From: Elusimicrobiota bacterium
GTDB lineage: Bacteria; Elusimicrobiota; UBA8919
Assembly (NCBI GenBank): GCA_041658185.1
Contig: JBBAAR010000001.1
Location: 44,405-108,404, forward strand
Direction of reading: 5' to 3'
Length of the DNA stretch: 64,000 nucleotides
The translations under genes and the position numbers were made by a program. Numbering within the stretch: position 1 is the first letter of the stretch; each line of letters begins with the position of its first letter. Positions 9,582 through 61,720 of the stretch are shown here, one piece after another. The notes under the pieces are model-generated. The model saw only the letters and a list, made by a program, of their open reading frames with translations. It did not search any database and was not told where the DNA came from.

Positions 9582-9607
9582 GAAAAATTGTACCTGTCCC
9601 TTTTTTT
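9582..9607 (+). repeat. REP-type motif GAAAAATTGTACCTGTCCCTTTTTTT (copy a)
   Basis: The same 22-26-nt motif recurs at 37901, 58430 (inverted), 59191 and 61975. Core GTACCTGTCCC at 9590..9600. Confidence 0.8.
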
Positions 9608-22088: not shown

Positions 22089-22931
22089 ATGAAAAAAGTA
22101 TTTGCTGCTATAGGTATTTTGTTAGTTTTGGCTAATTTTGTCTATGCGGCGGAAGAATTGTTTTTCTTCTGCGGGGCGGCTGTTGCAGTACCTATGCGCG
22201 AAATCATTAAGAATTATGAGAGAGAAACAGGAGTAAAAGTTAACGTTATTTATGGAGGATCCGGAACGCTTCTTTCACAGATGGAGTTGACAAAAAGAGG
22301 TGATGTTTATCTTTGCGGCTCGCCAGAGTATATTGCTATAGGAATTAAACGCGGGCTTCTAATAGAAGGAACCGACAAAATCGTTTCATATCTTGTTCCG
22401 GCCATAATTGTTCCGAAGGAAAATCCAAAAAATATTCAAAAACTTGAGGATTTAGCAAAAAAAGATGTAAGAGTAGGAATAGGAAATCCGGAAACGGTAT
22501 GTTTAGGACTGTACGGAATAGGACTTCTTGATTACAACAATCTTCTTGAAAAAGTTTTGCCGAATGTCGTTGTGTTTGCCAAAAGCTGCGAGGATACCGC
22601 AACAATCTGTGTCTTAAAAAAGGTTGACGCTATAATCGGCTGGGATGTTTTTGAAAGTTGGAATCCGAGAGATGTTACGTGGATAAAAATTGATGCAAAA
22701 AAAATACCGCAACTCTCTTATATCCCGATAACGATACCCGTTTTTGTAAAAGACAGGAAACTTGCAGAAGAATTCATAAATTATGTCATAACATCCAAAA
22801 ACAGTAAAGAAATTTGGAAAAAGTATAATTATATTTCTGATATAAAAAAAGCAAGAAAATATGCACCTTATTCAAAAATCGGCAGTGACTATAAACTGCC
22901 GGAAAAATACTTTAAGTTTATAAAAAAATAG
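22089..22931 (+). CDS. modA: molybdate/tungstate ABC transporter substrate-binding protein
   Basis: Signal peptide. GAAVAVPMREIIKNYERETGVKVNVIYGGSGTLLSQMELTKRGDVYLCGSPEYI is ModA/WtpA-like. Confidence 0.75.
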   Translation: MKKVFAAIGILLVLANFVYAAEELFFFCGAAVAVPMREIIKNYERETGVKVNVIYGGSGTLLSQMELTKRGDVYLCGSPEYIAIGIKRGLLIEGTDKIVSYLVPAIIVPKENPKNIQKLEDLAKKDVRVGIGNPETVCLGLYGIGLLDYNNLLEKVLPNVVVFAKSCEDTATICVLKKVDAIIGWDVFESWNPRDVTWIKIDAKKIPQLSYIPITIPVFVKDRKLAEEFINYVITSKNSKEIWKKYNYISDIKKARKYAPYSKIGSDYKLPEKYFKFIKK

Positions 22932-23003
22932 GACACGGAAAAGACAGATAAAGATTTATCTGTGTAATCGCCTTTGAAAATCTGTGTAATCTGTGTTAAA
23001 AAA
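22932..23003 (+). repeat. family-E intercistronic element, copy E1
   Basis: gACACGGAaaaGACAGATAAagatTTATCTGTGtaatcgcctttgaaAATCTGTGTAATCTGTGTTaaaaaaATG. Hairpin ACAGATAA/TTATCTGT at 22944..22963. There is no SD before the ATG at 23004. Confidence 0.65.
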
Positions 23004-23792
23004 ATGAAGAATAAAATCTTTAAGATTGTTCTCTGGTCTTTCCTGGTATCGCTTGTTTTATTTTTTTTAATTTTCATTTCCGGGCTTTTCCAGCAGTTAA
23101 AAATTACATCTTTCCAAAAACAATTTGCGACGGGTGAAATACTTTTCGCGATAAAACTTACACTTCTAACAGCAACCGTTTCATCAACTATTGCCTTAAT
23201 ATTTGCGGTTCCTATTGCCTATATTTTGTCAAGATATAATTTCCCGTTGAAGAATCTTGTTAATTCAATCATGTATCTTCCGATTGTTATTTCACCGATT
23301 GCTCTCGGCGCGATGCTTCTTATTTTCTTTACTACACCTATCGGAAATTTTTTTGAAACACATCTTTTCAGAGTTGTATTTGAAGTCCCTGCGATAATTC
23401 TTGCACAGTTTATTGTAATTATAGGACTGGCGGTTTCACTTATAAAATCCGTTTTTGATTATATAAATCCCGAATATGAACTTATTGCAAGAACACTGGG
23501 TGCTTCACAATATCAGACATTTTTCCGTATTCTATTACCAACCGCTAAAAAAGGAATAATATCTGCATTTCTTCTCGTCTGGGCCCGAGCGGTCGGAGAG
23601 TTCGGCGCAACGGTTACGCTCGCGGGTGCTACTACAATGAAAACGGAGACATTGCCGGTTGCAATTTTTCTTTCCTTCGCATCATGCGATATCTACAATG
23701 CAATAATTTTAATACTCGTTTCGCTTTTTATAGGAATAGCAGTTTTATACGGGATACAACTTTATGCTGAAAATAGAAAACCTCAACTGTAA
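23004..23792 (+). CDS. modB: molybdate/tungstate ABC transporter permease
   Basis: ABC permease loop LIARTLGASQYQTFFRILLPTAKKGIISAFLLVWARAVGEFGATVTLAG. I moved the start from 22974 to the ATG at 23004 (MKNKIF...) because 22974..23003 lies in the E1 repeat. Confidence 0.8.
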   Translation: MKNKIFKIVLWSFLVSLVLFFLIFISGLFQQLKITSFQKQFATGEILFAIKLTLLTATVSSTIALIFAVPIAYILSRYNFPLKNLVNSIMYLPIVISPIALGAMLLIFFTTPIGNFFETHLFRVVFEVPAIILAQFIVIIGLAVSLIKSVFDYINPEYELIARTLGASQYQTFFRILLPTAKKGIISAFLLVWARAVGEFGATVTLAGATTMKTETLPVAIFLSFASCDIYNAIILILVSLFIGIAVLYGIQLYAENRKPQL

Positions 23793-25758: not shown

Positions 25759-26229
25759 ATGAAAATTGAAACTACCGTAAACGAGCAGAAAAAAGAACTC
25801 AATGTAAAAAATTATACCGAACCTCTGCTTGATGTTTTAAGACGGCATAATTATCTCGGCGCAAAAGAAGGTTGTCGGCAGGGGCAATGCGGGGCGTGCG
25901 TCGTGCTCGTAAACGGTTTGCCTGTTAATTCCTGTATTTATCCGGCGGGGCGGACAAACGGCAAAAAAATCACAACTATAGAGGGACTCGGCAAACCGAA
26001 CAACCTGGATAAAATACAGCAGGCATATCTGGAAACAGGGGCCGTCCAGTGCGGATACTGCACGCCGGGAATGGTATTAAGCACCAAAGCGCTGCTGGAT
26101 AAAAATTCTATGCCGACGGAAGATGAAATAAAACTTGCATTAGACGGCAATCTTTGCAGATGCACGGGATATGTAAAAATTATTGATGCGGTGAAACTTG
26201 CGGCAAAAAGATACAAGAAAACTTCGTAA
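25759..26229 (+). CDS. xanthine-dehydrogenase-family [2Fe-2S] (small) subunit, enzyme 1
   Basis: CRQGQCGACVVLVNG and CGYCTPGM...CRCTGY cluster motifs. Confidence 0.9.
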   Translation: MKIETTVNEQKKELNVKNYTEPLLDVLRRHNYLGAKEGCRQGQCGACVVLVNGLPVNSCIYPAGRTNGKKITTIEGLGKPNNLDKIQQAYLETGAVQCGYCTPGMVLSTKALLDKNSMPTEDEIKLALDGNLCRCTGYVKIIDAVKLAAKRYKKTS

Positions 26230-26347
26230 CCACAGATGGACGCAGATGGACACAGATAAATTCAAAAGATAAAAATGATTTGTAGTTTTTTATCTGCGTA
26301 AATCGGCGACTGTCCCGCTTGCGGGATGTATCTGCGGTTAAAATTTT
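26230..26347 (+). repeat. family-E intercistronic element, copy E2 (long form)
   Basis: TAAccacagatggacgcagatggacacagataa...ttatctgcg...[tcccgcttgcggga]...gtatctgcggttaaaattttATG. Three tandem 10-nt words are followed by complementary words. No SD. Confidence 0.7.
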
Positions 26348-49930: not shown

Positions 49931-51307
49931 TTACTCCAACATTTTTTTTGCAATTCTGTTTGTCTTTTCGTAAAGTTTTTGCTCGTCGCAATTTACCAAT
50001 TTTCCATTTTTAACTACTATTTTACCGTTGACTATGGTCGTATCAACAATATCCGAATCGCCGCAAAAAAGCAAAGATGCAAGAACATCGTGAATACCGC
50101 CGGCATAACCGATTTTTTCAACGTCAAATAAAACAATATCCGCTGCCTTACCCGACTCAATTGCGCCTATGTCATCCCGTCCTAAAACCTGAGCGCCGCC
50201 GCGGGTTGCCATCCATAAAACATCTTCGGCAGGCATTGATTTTACGCCTGATTTCAAACGATGAACCAAAAGACATGTTTTTAATTCCCGGAGCATATTT
50301 GAGGAATCATTTGATGCGGAACCGTCTACCGCAAGGGAAACGGGGACTCCGTTTTCAATCATCTTTCTTACCGGCGCAATACCGCTTCCTAACCGTAGAT
50401 TTGAAACTGGACAATGCGCAACGCCAGTTTTTGTTTTCCCCATCAATTTTATTTCATCGTCATTAAGATGGATGCAATGAGCAAACCAGATATCATCTCC
50501 TAACCAGCCGACTTTTTCCATATAAGCGAGTGGTTTTAAGTTGTGTTCTTCCAGACAAAATTTTTCTTCATCAATCGTTTCGGCGATATGCGTGTGACAT
50601 TTTATTTTTTTCTTGCGGGCAAAATTTACCGTCTCCTTTAGTAACTCCGTTGTAACTGAAAACGGCGAGCAGGGAGACAGGGCAATCCGGCACATTGAAA
50701 ATTTCTCGGAATTGTGATATTTGTCCACTACCCGTTCGGAGTCCTTCATTATCTCGTTTTCCGTCTGAACCACATCGTCCGGCGGAAGACCGCCTTTCGA
50801 CTGACCTCGCGACATTGAACCGCGGGTAGGATGGAATCTAATCCCGATTTCCGATGCCGCTTTAATTTCAAAATCCAACAAATCCTTTGGCTGGTTTTTC
50901 GGAAAAATATAAAACTGGTCGGTTGATGTAGTGCATCCAGTCAGCAGCAGTTCACCCAAACCCACAATCGCCGATGTATAAACCGCATCCGGAGTGATAT
51001 TTTTCCAGACGGTATAAAGATATTTTAACCAGTCAAAAAGTTCGGCATCCTGGACTTCCCGGATGTTTCTGTAAAGCGTCTGGTACAAGTGATGATGAGT
51101 GTTGACAAATCCCGGAAGCACAACGCATTTTGAGGCATCAATAATGGTACAGGCAGAAGGCAGCGGGTGTAGGGTGGACGGTAAATTTTTACCGACGAAT
51201 TTTATTTCATTATCTTCTATGAAAATATTACCGCCGGCGATTTTTGTTCTCTTATTGTCCATTTGAACAACAAGTTTTGCATTTTTAATCAGAATGTTTT
51301 TTTTCAT
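49931..51307 (-). CDS. TRZ/ATZ-family amidohydrolase (guanine / 8-oxoguanine deaminase-like)
   Basis: FVNTHHHLYQTLYRNI, HTHIAET, LAVDGSASND. I moved the start from 51373 to ATG 51307 (MKKNILIKNAKLV) because 51310..51391 is repeat E3. Confidence 0.8.
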   Translation of the reverse strand: MKKNILIKNAKLVVQMDNKRTKIAGGNIFIEDNEIKFVGKNLPSTLHPLPSACTIIDASKCVVLPGFVNTHHHLYQTLYRNIREVQDAELFDWLKYLYTVWKNITPDAVYTSAIVGLGELLLTGCTTSTDQFYIFPKNQPKDLLDFEIKAASEIGIRFHPTRGSMSRGQSKGGLPPDDVVQTENEIMKDSERVVDKYHNSEKFSMCRIALSPCSPFSVTTELLKETVNFARKKKIKCHTHIAETIDEEKFCLEEHNLKPLAYMEKVGWLGDDIWFAHCIHLNDDEIKLMGKTKTGVAHCPVSNLRLGSGIAPVRKMIENGVPVSLAVDGSASNDSSNMLRELKTCLLVHRLKSGVKSMPAEDVLWMATRGGAQVLGRDDIGAIESGKAADIVLFDVEKIGYAGGIHDVLASLLFCGDSDIVDTTIVNGKIVVKNGKLVNCDEQKLYEKTNRIAKKMLE

Positions 51308-51309
51308 TT

Positions 51310-51391
51310 TCGTAACCGCAGATACACACAGATTGTCGCAGATAAAATCTTTTTTGAACTTATCCGCGTTCATCTGCGTTCATCTGTGGTT
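51310..51391 (-). repeat. family-E intercistronic element, copy E3 (short form)
   Basis: Minus strand: TGAaaccacagatgaacgcagatgaacgcggataagttcaaaaaagattttatctgcgacaatctgtgtgtatctgcggttacgaaaATG. Confidence 0.75.
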
Positions 51392-53011
51392 TCACTTTTT
51401 AGATAATTCCTGCAGTCTTTCGGTTGCTTTTTTAGCCCACTGGGTATCACTATATCTTTTTTTCACAATTTCATAATTTTGTTTTGCATCTTTAATAAAT
51501 CCTATTTCTTCCGATGCGCGGGCAGACATGTAATGGGATTCCGGGACATATTGTGAATCGCTGAAAAGATAAACCACTTTCAGATATTCTCGCGCAGCTT
51601 CCTTGTATTTTTTCTGCATGAAATAACAATCCGCTGCCTTTTTCTGCGCAATAGCGCCCATATCCTCGTCCGCTGTGCTCAACAATCCGTTCGTCTTCTC
51701 GGCCTTGCCGATACCTTTATTTTTAGAAATGCTTGCGGCAAGTTCATAGTTCTCAATCGCAGCAAAATAATCGCCGCTCCTTTCAAATTCGCTGCCCCGC
51801 CTAAGATACATTTCAGCAGCAGCAAGCGATTTCGGATACCTGTAAAGTATCTCGCTGTAGCATTTCTCTGCCTCAAGTGTATTACCAGTTTTTTCATAAG
51901 CAACGCCACTGTTATATTTCATCATCGCAAAAATTTCCGAGTCGGATGTTTCAAGTTTAAGTCCGATATTATAACTCTCAATTGCTTTGCGATAGTCAGA
52001 CGACTCAAGGTAACAATTTCCGATATAAAACATCGCCTCGGCATAATTTTTTGATAACGGATATTCTTCAATAAACTTTTGAAATGAATTTATGGCGACA
52101 GCCGGCACGCCGGTTTTGTAGTAAATTTTAGAGCGCAAGAAATTTGACTCTTCCGCAATATTATGCTCTGGAAAATTAGATGCAATCTGTTCAAAATATT
52201 TTGCGGCTTTATCATAATCTTTTTTTTTGTAAAAATATTCGGCAACTTGATAGGTAATTTCCGGCGAGAGTTGCGACTTCGGATATTTTTCGGAAAACTG
52301 GATGTAGACCGCCATTGCATCAAAAACGGCTCCCTCAGATTCATATACGCGGCCGACGGAGTAAAGCGCAAACTCTGCCGGCGTTGATGCAGGATATTTT
52401 GTTAAAACTTTTCTGTATGAATTTCTCGCCTGCTTGTATTTTTTTAGATTGAAATAACTGTCGCCGAGACGAAGCCATCCGTCGGCAGCATAATCGGATT
52501 TCGGATAATTCCGGACAAGCGCGGTAAAAGAAACGGCAGCTTTTTTAAAATTTTTGTTTTTGAAGTGGAGCATCCCGACCCAGTATTGTGCATCGTCGGT
52601 TATTTTTGTACCGGGGAACCGTTTTACAAAATTCAAAAAATAGTCGCGGGCTTTTTCGTAACTGTTTTTTTTATAATAAACAAGTCCGATACCGAGCCGC
52701 GCAAGCAAGGATTCGTTTGTATTGGGAAATTTTTCTGTTATGCGAACATATTCTTTAAGTGCGTCATCAAGTTGCAAAAGTTCCGACATAGAATCCGCTC
52801 TATAAAGATATGCCTTTTTCAGAAAATCTTTATCTTTCTTTGTAGCGGTAGAAATTACGGCATCAAAAGACTCAATAGCAGATTTACAGTTGCCATCTTG
52901 AAACTGTTTAACGCCTGTATTATATATCTGTTCAATGTGTGACTGGGCATAAAGACAGCAGATAGCGAATAGGAAGTAGAAAATAGCAAGAAACAATAAA
53001 CTTTTTTTCAT
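51392..53011 (-). CDS. secreted TPR-repeat protein
   Basis: Signal peptide, then more than 10 TPR-like units (e.g. AQYWVGMLHFKNKNFKKAAVSFTALVRNYPKS). Confidence 0.7.
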   Translation of the reverse strand: MKKSLLFLAIFYFLFAICCLYAQSHIEQIYNTGVKQFQDGNCKSAIESFDAVISTATKKDKDFLKKAYLYRADSMSELLQLDDALKEYVRITEKFPNTNESLLARLGIGLVYYKKNSYEKARDYFLNFVKRFPGTKITDDAQYWVGMLHFKNKNFKKAAVSFTALVRNYPKSDYAADGWLRLGDSYFNLKKYKQARNSYRKVLTKYPASTPAEFALYSVGRVYESEGAVFDAMAVYIQFSEKYPKSQLSPEITYQVAEYFYKKKDYDKAAKYFEQIASNFPEHNIAEESNFLRSKIYYKTGVPAVAINSFQKFIEEYPLSKNYAEAMFYIGNCYLESSDYRKAIESYNIGLKLETSDSEIFAMMKYNSGVAYEKTGNTLEAEKCYSEILYRYPKSLAAAEMYLRRGSEFERSGDYFAAIENYELAASISKNKGIGKAEKTNGLLSTADEDMGAIAQKKAADCYFMQKKYKEAAREYLKVVYLFSDSQYVPESHYMSARASEEIGFIKDAKQNYEIVKKRYSDTQWAKKATERLQELSKK

Positions 53012-54310: not shown

Positions 54311-54415
54311 ATATTTTTTAGCCACGAATTAACACTAATTTGCACGAATAAATTCGTGCCTACAATCTTTATTATTCGCGGCCATTCGTGTCCATTCGTG
54401 GTTTATTTTTTTCAT
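54311..54415 (-). repeat. family-E intercistronic element, copy E4 (word-swapped: CGAAT/ATTCG instead of CAGAT/ATCTG)
   Basis: Minus strand: ...aaaccacgaatggacacgaatggccgcgaataa...gcacgaatttattcgtgc...ttaattcgtggctaaaaaatatATG. Confidence 0.75.
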
Positions 54416-58462: not shown

Positions 58463-59152
58463 TCATTTCGCAGCCGCGCTTTTCTTCTTTGGTCTGCCTT
58501 TATGCGACCACAAAGATTTTAAACCCGATACTTTCATTGCTTCCACAAATTGTTCGCTCCCATAAGCACCAGATCTAAAAAATCTTTTCAATTGACGTTT
58601 TTCTTTATGTCCGGATGCGACAAAATCACGATATAATCGTCGTCTTTGTTCCGCAGTATCGCCCAACCCAAGATACTCTGGACTCAAATCCGTTATACCA
58701 TCATTTTTTCCTAATGCATACACCGTATAACTAGACCATTTGTAATCTTCCGGTTTACTGACCATTCCCGCTCTTACCGCATTTAGTTCAATATACCGCC
58801 CGCATTCAAGTAGATATCTACCGCTTTCAATAATAAAATTTTTAAATCTTTCCTCCCAAAGATGCCCGGTCCCACCATACTTTTTTCTGTAATATTGCGC
58901 ATAGAGAAGTTTTATACTTTTCAGTGCATCGCTCAATTTTTTGCCGGTTTCCGACTCAATTATTGCGTGAAAGTGATTGCTCATCAATTTATAATGATAA
59001 ATTTTAAGTCCATATCTTCGTTTGTAATACTTCACTAAACTTAAAAACTGCTTAAAATCTTTTTCATCGTGAAAAACTACTTGGCGATTATTCCCTCTGC
59101 TTAAAATATGGTAAATCCCGTTTTCTATCGTGAATCTTGCTCTACGCGGCAT
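58463..59152 (-). CDS. REP-associated tyrosine transposase (IS200/IS605-like Y1, RAYT)
   Basis: YHILSRGNNRQVVF, HUH motif LMSNHFHAII, GHLWEERFKNFII, catalytic-Tyr region GRYIELNAVRAGMVSKPEDYKWSSY. Confidence 0.8.
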   Translation of the reverse strand: MPRRARFTIENGIYHILSRGNNRQVVFHDEKDFKQFLSLVKYYKRRYGLKIYHYKLMSNHFHAIIESETGKKLSDALKSIKLLYAQYYRKKYGGTGHLWEERFKNFIIESGRYLLECGRYIELNAVRAGMVSKPEDYKWSSYTVYALGKNDGITDLSPEYLGLGDTAEQRRRLYRDFVASGHKEKRQLKRFFRSGAYGSEQFVEAMKVSGLKSLWSHKGRPKKKSAAAK

Positions 59153-61560: not shown

Positions 61561-61720
61561 AAAAAAGCCAAGTTACCTAAAACAACTGTGCCCAATTATT
61601 GAACACAGCATTATCTTCGGTAACCCGGCTAACTTTTATCCTTCGGCAACTCGGCGAACTCTCAAAAAGTCCCGTGGTTTTGCGTCCCCGACTCGCGTCG
61701 GCTCTGGCTTTTGCCAGAGG
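61561..61720 (-). promoter_or_regulatory. probable GEMM-I (c-di-GMP-I class) cyclic-dinucleotide riboswitch with intrinsic terminator
   Basis: Minus strand: UCUGGC-AAAAGCCAGAG-CCGAC-GCGA-GUCGG-GGACGCAAAACCACGGGAC...GUUAGCCGGGUUACCGAAG. It has a GNRA-capped hairpin, the ACGCAAA(G/A)CC-CGGG core and the AGCCGGGUUACCGA 3' strand. AGCCGGGUUACC (61630..61619) can alternatively pair with GGUAACUUGGCU (61577..61566), which is followed by U6. Confidence 0.6.

Follow-up and report, generated by a model that had tools for sequence, protein, structure and literature searches.

E3, a short palindrome of tandem words at a gene junction in an Elusimicrobiota genome, and its cross-phylum family associated with GxxExxY genes

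Correia/NEMIS elements of Neisseria, together with ERIC/IRU, RUP and BOX, are MITEs (miniature inverted-repeat transposable elements) that form transcribed hairpins, and each is restricted to one genus. Here we describe E3, a palindromic element of 84 nt that lies between a TPR gene and an amidohydrolase gene in a 64,000-nt stretch of DNA from an Elusimicrobiota metagenome-assembled genome, recovered from a landfill metagenome (European Nucleotide Archive (ENA) contig k141_333455, 197.6 kb); the whole of this stretch is called the window below. Our analyses indicate that E3 is probably a non-autonomous, MITE-like copy, lacking an open reading frame (ORF), of a widespread palindromic element associated with genes for GxxExxY proteins, and that it was inserted at a coupled gene junction.

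Bacterial MITEs have been reviewed in general (PMC3184786). E3 and its relatives, here called E-type elements, resemble them in their small size (<200 nt), lack of coding sequence, multiple copies and intergenic position, in the long mRNA hairpin to which their terminal inverted repeats give rise, in their strain-variable presence and in having a larger, gene-bearing relative with the same ends. E3 itself has terminal inverted repeats, small size, no coding capacity and several copies, and copies with the same arms that encode GxxExxY exist as candidate autonomous partners. Unlike those of bacterial MITEs, however, E-type arms are made of three tandem 10-nt words that recur across phyla and in one archaeon, the partner gene encodes a PD-(D/E)XK protein of about 120 aa and not a DDE transposase, and no consistent target-site duplication was found.

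Repetitive extragenic palindromes (REPs) are imperfect palindromes of 20-40 nt with a conserved GTAG or CGTC head (PMC3733652). With the systems formed by REPs, REPINs and REP-associated tyrosine transposases (RAYTs), E-type elements share intergenic hairpin repeats, an abundance of short copies beside a rare gene-bearing unit flanked by inverted repeats, and an enzyme presumed to act in trans on ORF-less copies. They differ in having no GTAG or CGTC tag, a PD-(D/E)XK and not an HUH/Y1 protein, and a sequence found across phyla; a different repeat accompanies the RAYT-like gene of the window. The IS200/IS605 class likewise has palindrome-associated miniature derivatives (PMC6006769), and DNA hairpins at the ends, no target duplication and ORF-less miniatures are common ground; whereas that class has a sub-terminal hairpin at each end and an HUH enzyme, the ends of an E-type element are complementary to each other, and neither TnpA nor TnpB is present here.

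Two further systems are similar in layout. The intervening sequences of 23S rRNA contain a small ORF for the four-helix-bundle protein S23p and are excised by RNase III. A tiny promoter-less ORF between complementary, stem-forming arms and a patchy distribution suggesting mobility are shared with E-type elements, which differ in their protein family and in their host sites (mRNA-coding intergenic regions), and for which excision from RNA would be hypothetical. The foldback transposons of eukaryotes are kilobase-scale elements whose terminal inverted repeats are arrays of short tandem repeats, many copies consisting of little but arms; the likeness is one of form only, as these elements are eukaryotic and their enzymes unrelated. 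In open-access papers and preprints we found no description of the word-arm element and only passing mentions of GxxExxY; hence, the family is apparently undescribed.

E3 as a member of a cross-phylum family

The features of E3 and its junction are as follows; the limits of the element were set by a covariance model.

51311..51394, minus: whole E3 element, reading TGAAAC, three words, loop, three anti-words, GTTACG
51392..51394, minus: TGA stop codon of the TPR gene, inside the TGAAAC outer end of E3 (outer consensus TGRAAC)
51362..51389, minus: 5' arm, C-CACAGAT-GAA-CGCAGAT-GAA-CGCGGAT, with canonical GAA spacers
51388-51382, 51378-51372 and 51368-51362, minus: words CACAGAT, CGCAGAT and CGCGGAT
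51371..51373, minus: ATG in word 2, start of a spurious 480-aa ORF with the N-terminus MNAD
51344..51361, minus: loop, AAGTTCAAAAAAGATTTT, 18 nt
51316..51343, minus: 3' arm, ATCTGCG-ACA-ATCTGTG-TGT-ATCTGCG-G
51343-51337, 51333-51327 and 51323-51317, minus: anti-words ATCTGCG, ATCTGTG and ATCTGCG
51305..51307, minus: true ATG of the amidohydrolase gene (458 aa), placed by orthologue N-termini

Words and anti-words keep a 10-nt period throughout, the outer ends read TGAAAC-C ... G-GTTACG, and the 5' arm agrees with the family consensus TGGAAC-CRCAGAT-GAA-CRCAGAT-GAA-CRCRGAT. The minimum free energy (MFE) fold of the sense strand has about 28 paired positions and reaches -39.1 kcal/mol, whereas dinucleotide shuffles give -15.8 +/- 2.8 (z = -8.2; none of 200 equally good); the antisense strand folds at -31.2 kcal/mol, the sense fold being better because two of the three imperfect positions are G-U. 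E3 was first noticed in a model's reading of the letters of the window (the original prediction), which quoted its minus-strand sequence exactly and described three nested word/anti-word helices. These reappear in the MFE fold, including the G-U pairs it gave and one A.C mismatch, and are real in E3. They are a slightly decayed version of the usual form: most copies in other genomes have GAA spacers matched by TTC in a continuous stem of about 30 bp, and in E3 the 3' spacers have drifted from the canonical TTC to ACA and TGT, so that the stem is split into three helices.

Arrays of three words occur three times on the two strands of the window, against 6e-7 expected from base composition, and the tandem word CAGATGRACRCAGATGRAC is found in at least 120 stretches of species-representative genomes. 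The matches listed come from Cyanobacteria, Planctomycetota, Verrucomicrobiota, Acidobacteriota, Proteobacteria, Latescibacterota, NC10 and Chloroflexi, as well as Treponema, Alicyclobacillus and the archaeon Methanoperedens, at GC contents of 36-69%. Among these listed matches there are 112 unpaired arrays and 74 word/anti-word pairs, 55 of which have 3+3 words; the arms are 4-466 nt apart (1053 nt in one pair), and the palindrome usually runs on for 2-9 nt past the words in sequence specific to the copy. The consensus is TGRAAC-CRCAGAT-GAA-CRCAGAT-GAA-CRCRGAT and its complement, with the outer ends TGRAAC-C ... G-GTTYCA. The spacing between words is 10 nt for 770 of 824 spacings, and arrays most often have three words, even where the loci were picked independently of the words. 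A covariance model (R1) was built from 18 short copies from other phyla and no window sequence; its best hit in the window is E3, at 58.5 bits (E = 2.6e-13). The membership of E3 in a cross-phylum word-arm family is well supported. The 'family E' of the original prediction is real, and its reading was incomplete rather than wrong, in that the family crosses phyla and is tied to GxxExxY genes instead of being specific to this genome. In 2.9 million viral contigs the words occur in only 34 stretches, none of them with a GxxExxY gene, and a phage vector was rejected on this ground.

X2 and X3 contigs, from two groundwater metagenomes, have flanks that are about 98-99% identical to those of E3 and join position 51310 to 51425/6 without it. 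On the minus strand these empty alleles read ...CAGGAATTAGGAAAAAAATGAAAAAAAAC, the TPR protein ending in QERLQE(L/I)(G/E)KK* (for example ...QELGKK*), and the TPR stop and the amidohydrolase start share bases in the string ATGA, no nucleotide lying between the two genes. The ancestral junction was therefore translationally coupled, and E3 now parts the two codons by 84 nt. Other orthologous TPR-amidohydrolase junctions measure 33 nt (84% identical protein) or 11 nt with a GGGGG Shine-Dalgarno (SD) motif (82%), or are overlapping (79%), and E3 is absent from those of loci L004, L006 and L009. In the closest relative (90%; L003, GCA_017973775.1) the junction has 177 nt with quite different words and no E3. 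This insert (L003 3824-4000) is built from the repeated words AATCGCTCGCAAA, AGTCGCTCGGAAG, GGTCGCTCTGCAA and TTCGCTCTGCGAG; this junction has thus also received, in a separate event, an insert of another repeat family. Orthologous sites are polymorphic for the presence of E3 and for that of a related element at 54317 (see below), and that E3 is an insertion at a translationally coupled gene junction is well supported. In the groundwater metagenomes that contain the empty allele, word depth over the arms is 8- to 3000-fold above that of the flanks.

A candidate 9-nt duplication of the junction accompanies the insertion.

51390..51398, minus: left copy, AAAGTGAAA; the empty allele, ...AAAAAAATGAAAAAAAAC, has one copy
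51302..51310, minus: right copy, AAAATGAAA, containing the amidohydrolase start

The TGAAAC of the left copy is also the family's own outer consensus, and for this reason the exact boundary of E3 cannot be fixed. Beside the insertion, the last 34 nt of the TPR gene (51392-51425, minus) form a local patch with about nine differences between the filled allele and the empty one (X2/X3).

Upstream of E3 are OmpA/Pal-like, TonB_C/TolA-like and TolB genes followed by the TPR gene (539 aa, CpoB/YbgF-like), and downstream are the amidohydrolase gene (8-oxoguanine-deaminase-like), a HEAT-repeat protein and a molybdenum hydroxylase. As originally predicted, E3 begins at the TPR stop codon (TGA, 51394-51392) and ends just before the amidohydrolase ATG, with a gap of 6-9 nt depending on how the AACC/GGUU pairs are counted; from 51394 to 51305 the minus strand ends with ATCTGCG-GTTACGAAA-ATG after the third anti-word. 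No SD-like 4-mer precedes this ATG, again in line with the prediction. An SD-like motif is present at 25 of the 48 genes in the window (background 7%) and at none of the genes that follow E3 and two other copies, E1 and E2. The 480-aa ORF adds 22 residues, MNADKFKKDFICDNLCVSAVTK, which begin MNAD from the word-2 ATG and are, as had been proposed, the repeat in translation. Amidohydrolase orthologues begin M-K-(K)-x-(I/L)-L-I-K-N and start 2-7 residues ahead of the ILIKN motif. A longer N-terminus was seen in only 1 of 53 orthologues, so that the extension is not conserved, conservation being the outcome that the original prediction had named as its own refutation; the true start is therefore 51307. 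The public ENA record annotates the 480-aa protein and so contains 22 spurious residues.

GxxExxY genes between word arms

Arm-to-arm distances in the family are bimodal, at 13-170 nt and 355-490 nt. Short copies have no ORF, and E3, with its 18-nt loop, no ORF and no enclosed GxxExxY gene, belongs to this size class; the copies whose arms are 355-490 nt apart enclose a GxxExxY protein of about 120 aa. Among the matches listed, such an ORF is enclosed in five of the nine longest pairs (TIGR04256, E = 1e-43; PF13366, E = 1e-41, the PDDEXK_3 family of the PD-(D/E)XK superfamily). Of the six GxxExxY genes in word-selected loci, five are precisely bracketed by arms, and there are about 13 miniature copies for each full copy among the listed matches.

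The converse test began from the protein: 80 metagenome loci were picked by GxxExxY protein alone, of which 70 had enough flank. In 29 of the 80, two or more exact words stand upstream of the gene and two or more anti-words stand downstream of it, and most other loci have the same layout with variant words (CGCCGAT, CACTGAT, CGCAAAT, or a 9-nt GCAGAAC type). The flanking inverted repeat exceeds every shuffled control in 53 of the 70 loci, and nearly all of these repeats are word arrays. The GxxExxY ORF fills the space between the arms, and its start codon usually falls within a word, where 47 of 77 genes have an ATG in frame. This word-encoded start, CAG-ATG-AAC-RCA-GAT, gives MN(T/A)D, the commonest N-termini being MNAD, MNTD and MDTD, and the word-2 ATG of E3 is of the same type.

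The family is large: homologues at E < 1e-10 number more than 7,500, and clustering at 50% identity leaves 28,062 representatives (E <= 0.001). The function of GxxExxY/PDDEXK_3 is listed as unknown, with the remark 'multiple transfers, mixed clades' (PMC3424549). GxxExxY proteins retain the catalytic D...E-x-K residues, and structure prediction (pLDDT 93) gives a minimal PD-(D/E)XK fold. Among solved structures the nearest are those of a restriction-endonuclease-like protein, Cas4, lambda exonuclease and Hjc, which at TM scores of 0.4-0.6 are generic PD-(D/E)XK neighbours, and a sequence search of the Protein Data Bank (PDB) returned no close solved relative.

Among the proteins P0197, P0211, P0241-P0247 and others, some representatives of 250-295 aa have two full domains, being either tandem copies or two adjacent genes read as one, and some end in TDKRK or TDEHR through read-through into a word array. 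Among distant GxxExxY genes on plasmids of cultured strains, one on a Fusobacteria plasmid (pZRK30-1, L248) is flanked by 22-nt direct repeats, CAGATTTAATCCGTGTACCTAT, and another, in Treponema saccharophilum (pTS1, L249), has single-word inverted arms, CACACGGATTC / GAATCCGTGT. The CACGGAT word persists while the architecture varies; with repeats reduced or rearranged in this way, the three-word architecture is not universal across the protein family.

Each canonical word contains ATGA, and because the period is 10 nt, every word lies one reading frame on from the word before it. Among 92 elements, 77 have a 5' arm that offers ATG in two or more frames, and 74 have one with stops in two or more frames, as against a single 3' arm with ATG in at least two frames when read on the same strand. 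In the 5' arm of E3, two ATGA and one GATAA place stop codons in all three frames. The ATG is preserved in each of the variant word families CGCCGATGAA, CACTGATGAA, CGCAAATGGA and CACGAATGGA, in which the 5' part of the word changes, and because the arms are mutual complements, an incoming ribosome meets the stop- and start-rich arm first whichever way the element is oriented. The stop codon of the host gene is often the outer triplet of the element (TAA, TAG or TGA at -4 to -6), as at E2 and E3; spurious ORFs also stop in words, so this count is not interpretable alone. From these sequence patterns we infer that the 5' arm may be a stop/restart cassette, letting a promoter-less gene ride on host translation.

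Mechanism, significance and rival explanations

As hypotheses for the mechanism of mobility and for a hijack of translation, we propose the following. A GxxExxY nuclease, supplied by a full-length copy elsewhere in the genome, would recognise the word arrays or the hairpin or cruciform that they form, and would mobilise full and miniature copies in trans. The 5' arm would close the incoming host frame and offer a start codon that a terminating ribosome could reuse, so that the promoter-less nuclease gene might ride on host expression. At E3 itself the effect would be passive: the element may supply or preserve the TPR stop codon, parts the formerly coupled genes, places its -39 kcal/mol hairpin, a likely substrate for double-strand RNase, 6-9 nt ahead of an SD-less start, and would mislead gene callers into the 22-codon extension. 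More tentatively, word-arm elements and their GxxExxY cargo could be a previously undescribed class of prokaryotic selfish element spread over many phyla, whose nuclease mobilises itself and a roughly 13-fold excess of gene-less miniatures. Its unit would be a promoter-less PD-(D/E)XK gene of about 120 codons between two arms of about 30 nt, which, with ATG and stop codons staggered through the frames by the 10-nt period, could insert either way round where a host gene ends or close by, terminate the host frame and borrow ribosomes.

Mobility is supported by the presence/absence polymorphism at E3 and at the 54317 element, by the multiple copies, by the very high arm depth in metagenomes and by the ratio of miniature to full copies. 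Several observations weigh against the explanation that we prefer. No GxxExxY gene is present in the roughly 81 kb of this genome examined, nor in about 30 kb of its relatives, and a trans-acting source in this organism is therefore unproven. Open-access papers and preprints give no record of nuclease or transposition activity for GxxExxY proteins, and GxxExxY remnants are not recognisable in miniature copies (one weak hit in 38). Protein similarity follows word type weakly (0.589 within types, 0.573 between; 19 of 500 permutations as high, which is marginal), and gene orientation relative to neighbours is moderately biased (22 co-directional, 8 opposite, 21 mixed). Direct repeats of 9 nt flank E1 (9/9), the 54317 element (9/9) and E3 (8/9), these being A-rich and expected by chance at about 3-4% each; a general target-site duplication is not supported, as the direct repeats flanking 91 elements from other genomes match the control distribution, and both points speak against classical cut-and-paste movement. 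The 112 listed arrays without a partner arm belong here too, as do the limits of the cassette, only 20 of 92 5' arms having ATG, and 32 of 92 stops, in all three frames. Finally, no RNA run was found to contain window sequence.

The other explanations turn largely on whether the words act as RNA or as DNA. That E3 is a host-selected regulatory hairpin in cis, serving as mRNA stabiliser, RNase III site or translational insulator between the Tol-Pal/CpoB genes and the amidohydrolase gene, would accord with the stronger fold of the sense strand and with the transcript coverage of a word array in Dolichospermum described below. It would also accord with a weak sense-strand excess of G.U over A.C in co-directional contexts (61 vs 45, p = 0.14; miniatures alone, 44 vs 28), and the stem, at about 28 paired positions, is long enough for RNase III processing, which calls for some 20 bp or more of mostly paired RNA. 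We regard it as improbable, because E3 is missing from a strain about 98-99% identical and from all four more distant orthologous junctions, and because the same sequence stands at unrelated junctions in unrelated phyla, including convergent and divergent intergenic regions (miniature copies by context: 28 co-directional, 12 convergent, 8 divergent). Across the arms, 92.5% of positions pair in the 18-copy alignment and 11 pairs have changed on both sides, mostly because each element uses one word type in both arms, whereas in mixed-word elements same-position agreement (63%) is barely above cross-position agreement (55%), and position-specific compensation is weak. E3 has no U-tract, no terminator call and no Rfam family; at the gathering threshold Rfam 15 finds nothing in E3, its only hit in the whole window being a c-di-GMP-I riboswitch (61616-61718), and in E-value mode the region 51250-51450 matches only generic miRNA-hairpin models, at 14-19 bits against thresholds of 70-100. 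Tolerance of the variable R positions without such compensation would suit the words as sites in duplex DNA for a conserved binding protein, similar to iterons or centromere-like sites, with hairpin potential incidental. The 10-bp period would set them one helical turn apart on one face, and the 112 listed arrays without a partner arm accord with this. This, too, we consider unlikely, given that most arrays are inverted pairs whose palindrome extends past the words into variable sequence, which points to a paired form or to transposon-like ends, and that no candidate binding protein is linked to the arrays except GxxExxY; were GxxExxY to bind as it acts on the ends of the element, this explanation would overlap with the one we prefer. 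The arms may function as an RNA hairpin, as a DNA hairpin or cruciform, or as duplex binding sites.

It is very unlikely that E3 is of the REP/REPIN type and owes its movement to a RAYT-like Y1 transposase, the gene for which lies at a distance of 7 kb (58463-59152, minus). That gene is single-copy and scores 78.3 bits against a cut-off of 80, REPINs are likewise hairpin-forming intergenic repeats, and in the same metagenome one E-type arm adjoins the Y1-flanking repeat (loose end at 26339). Nevertheless, the gene is flanked by a different repeat (AAAAAGGGGACAGGTACAATTTTT/GGGACAGGTAC) with five copies in the window and not by E words, neither E3 nor the family consensus has a GTAG or CGTC head, and REP sequences are lineage-specific whereas E words cross phyla and are tied to GxxExxY. 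Least credible of all is a rho-independent terminator or a chance low-complexity palindrome; a strong stem does directly follow the stop codon, but the number of three-word arrays in the window is far above expectation and homologous copies exist in more than 100 genomes. As far as sequence can tell, an intrinsic terminator at E3 is ruled out by the 18-nt loop, by an A-rich tail (ACGAAAAUGAAAA) without a U-run and by the absence of a call in a terminator scan.

E-type elements matter for annotation and for experiment. The fixed context of inverted word arms, with a start codon in the arm, is a first testable handle on GxxExxY function, and the selfish-class reading, if true, would give a function to a family whose 28,062 representatives are annotated only as 'GxxExxY protein'. 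Word arms explain a large class of spurious annotations, namely false N-terminal extensions and 'hypothetical proteins' made of peptides of the MNAD, TDEHR or ICVHLR type, which masking of word arrays would remove. The insertions fall in very tight junctions (ATGA, TAAATG) of core operons such as Tol-Pal and can therefore uncouple the translation of neighbouring genes; they are also strain-level markers. Mobility by a minimal PD-(D/E)XK nuclease, if confirmed, would represent a new transposition chemistry and a very compact DNA-recognition module.

A word array in transcript data was met in Dolichospermum circinale AWQC310F (L050 6185-6217), where metatranscriptome contigs cover a solo array of three anti-words located between the end of a gene and ilvD. 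One contig of 2.2 kb spans it without a break, and the array recurs with other flanks in several RNA contigs; the contigs show only that the array is transcribed, or else DNA contamination. For a Wenzhouxiangella locus (L017), no RNA runs containing it were found.

Other copies and repeats in the window

With E3, and including the weak E1, four E copies occur in the 64 kb.

26228..26340, plus: E2, sister copy; three canonical words, loop expanded, 3' arm interrupted (R1, 32.6 bits, E = 2e-6)
22928..23001, plus: E1, decayed copy, with the direct repeat TAAAAAAAT at 22921-22929 and 22997-23005
54317..54406, minus: fourth element, of the same architecture with the word CACGAAT, at the TolA(TonB_C)-TolB junction (R1, 43.2 bits, E = 3e-9)

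E2 sits between the 2Fe-2S and Mo subunits of a hydroxylase. Its loop and that of E3 have TTCAAAAGA in common, and alignment agrees with the predicted collinearity of the two elements; the additional 30-40 nt or so of E2 are in two pieces, a 17-nt expansion of the loop and a small GC hairpin in place of part of the middle anti-word. This hairpin (GTCCCGCTTGCGGGAT, 26309-26330) includes CTGTCCC, which resembles part of the GGGACAGGTAC repeat on the other strand. R1 gives E1 only 10.9 bits (E = 1.6), so its membership is weak. Empty sites for E1 and E2 were sought in four metagenomes and none was found.

The element at 54317 reads CCACGAAT-GGA-CACGAAT-GGC-CGCGAAT ... ATTCGTG-CAA-ATTAGTG-TTA-ATTCGTGG, with ATGAAAAAA present on both sides, and folds at -27.5 kcal/mol (z = -4.0). 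Three relatives have a TolA-TolB junction of 0-5 nt (TAAATG, TAAaTTG and TAGaaacaATG), and the insertion lengthens the apparent TolB ORF by five codons (GTG 54325 vs ATG 54310). In about 17 kb of the same contig outside the window there are no further full E copies and no GxxExxY gene. Approximately 7 kb beyond the window start, a one-word CGCGAAT hairpin (ACACGCGAAT ... ATTCGCGTGT; L210 19140-19180) immediately precedes a CODH/ACS gene, and may be related to the CACGAAT element as a minimal or decayed form.

The c-di-GMP-I riboswitch aptamer at 61616-61718 (minus) scores 50.2 bits against a gathering threshold of 35. On either side of the Y1 transposase gene (229 aa, 58463-59152, minus; 78.3 bits on the REP-associated tyrosine transposase model) stand inverted copies of AAAAAGGGGACAGGTACAATTTTT, a motif with five copies in the window, at 9590, 37909, 58430, 59197 and 61981, where 0.27 would be expected; gene and repeats look like a separate system of the REP/RAYT type.

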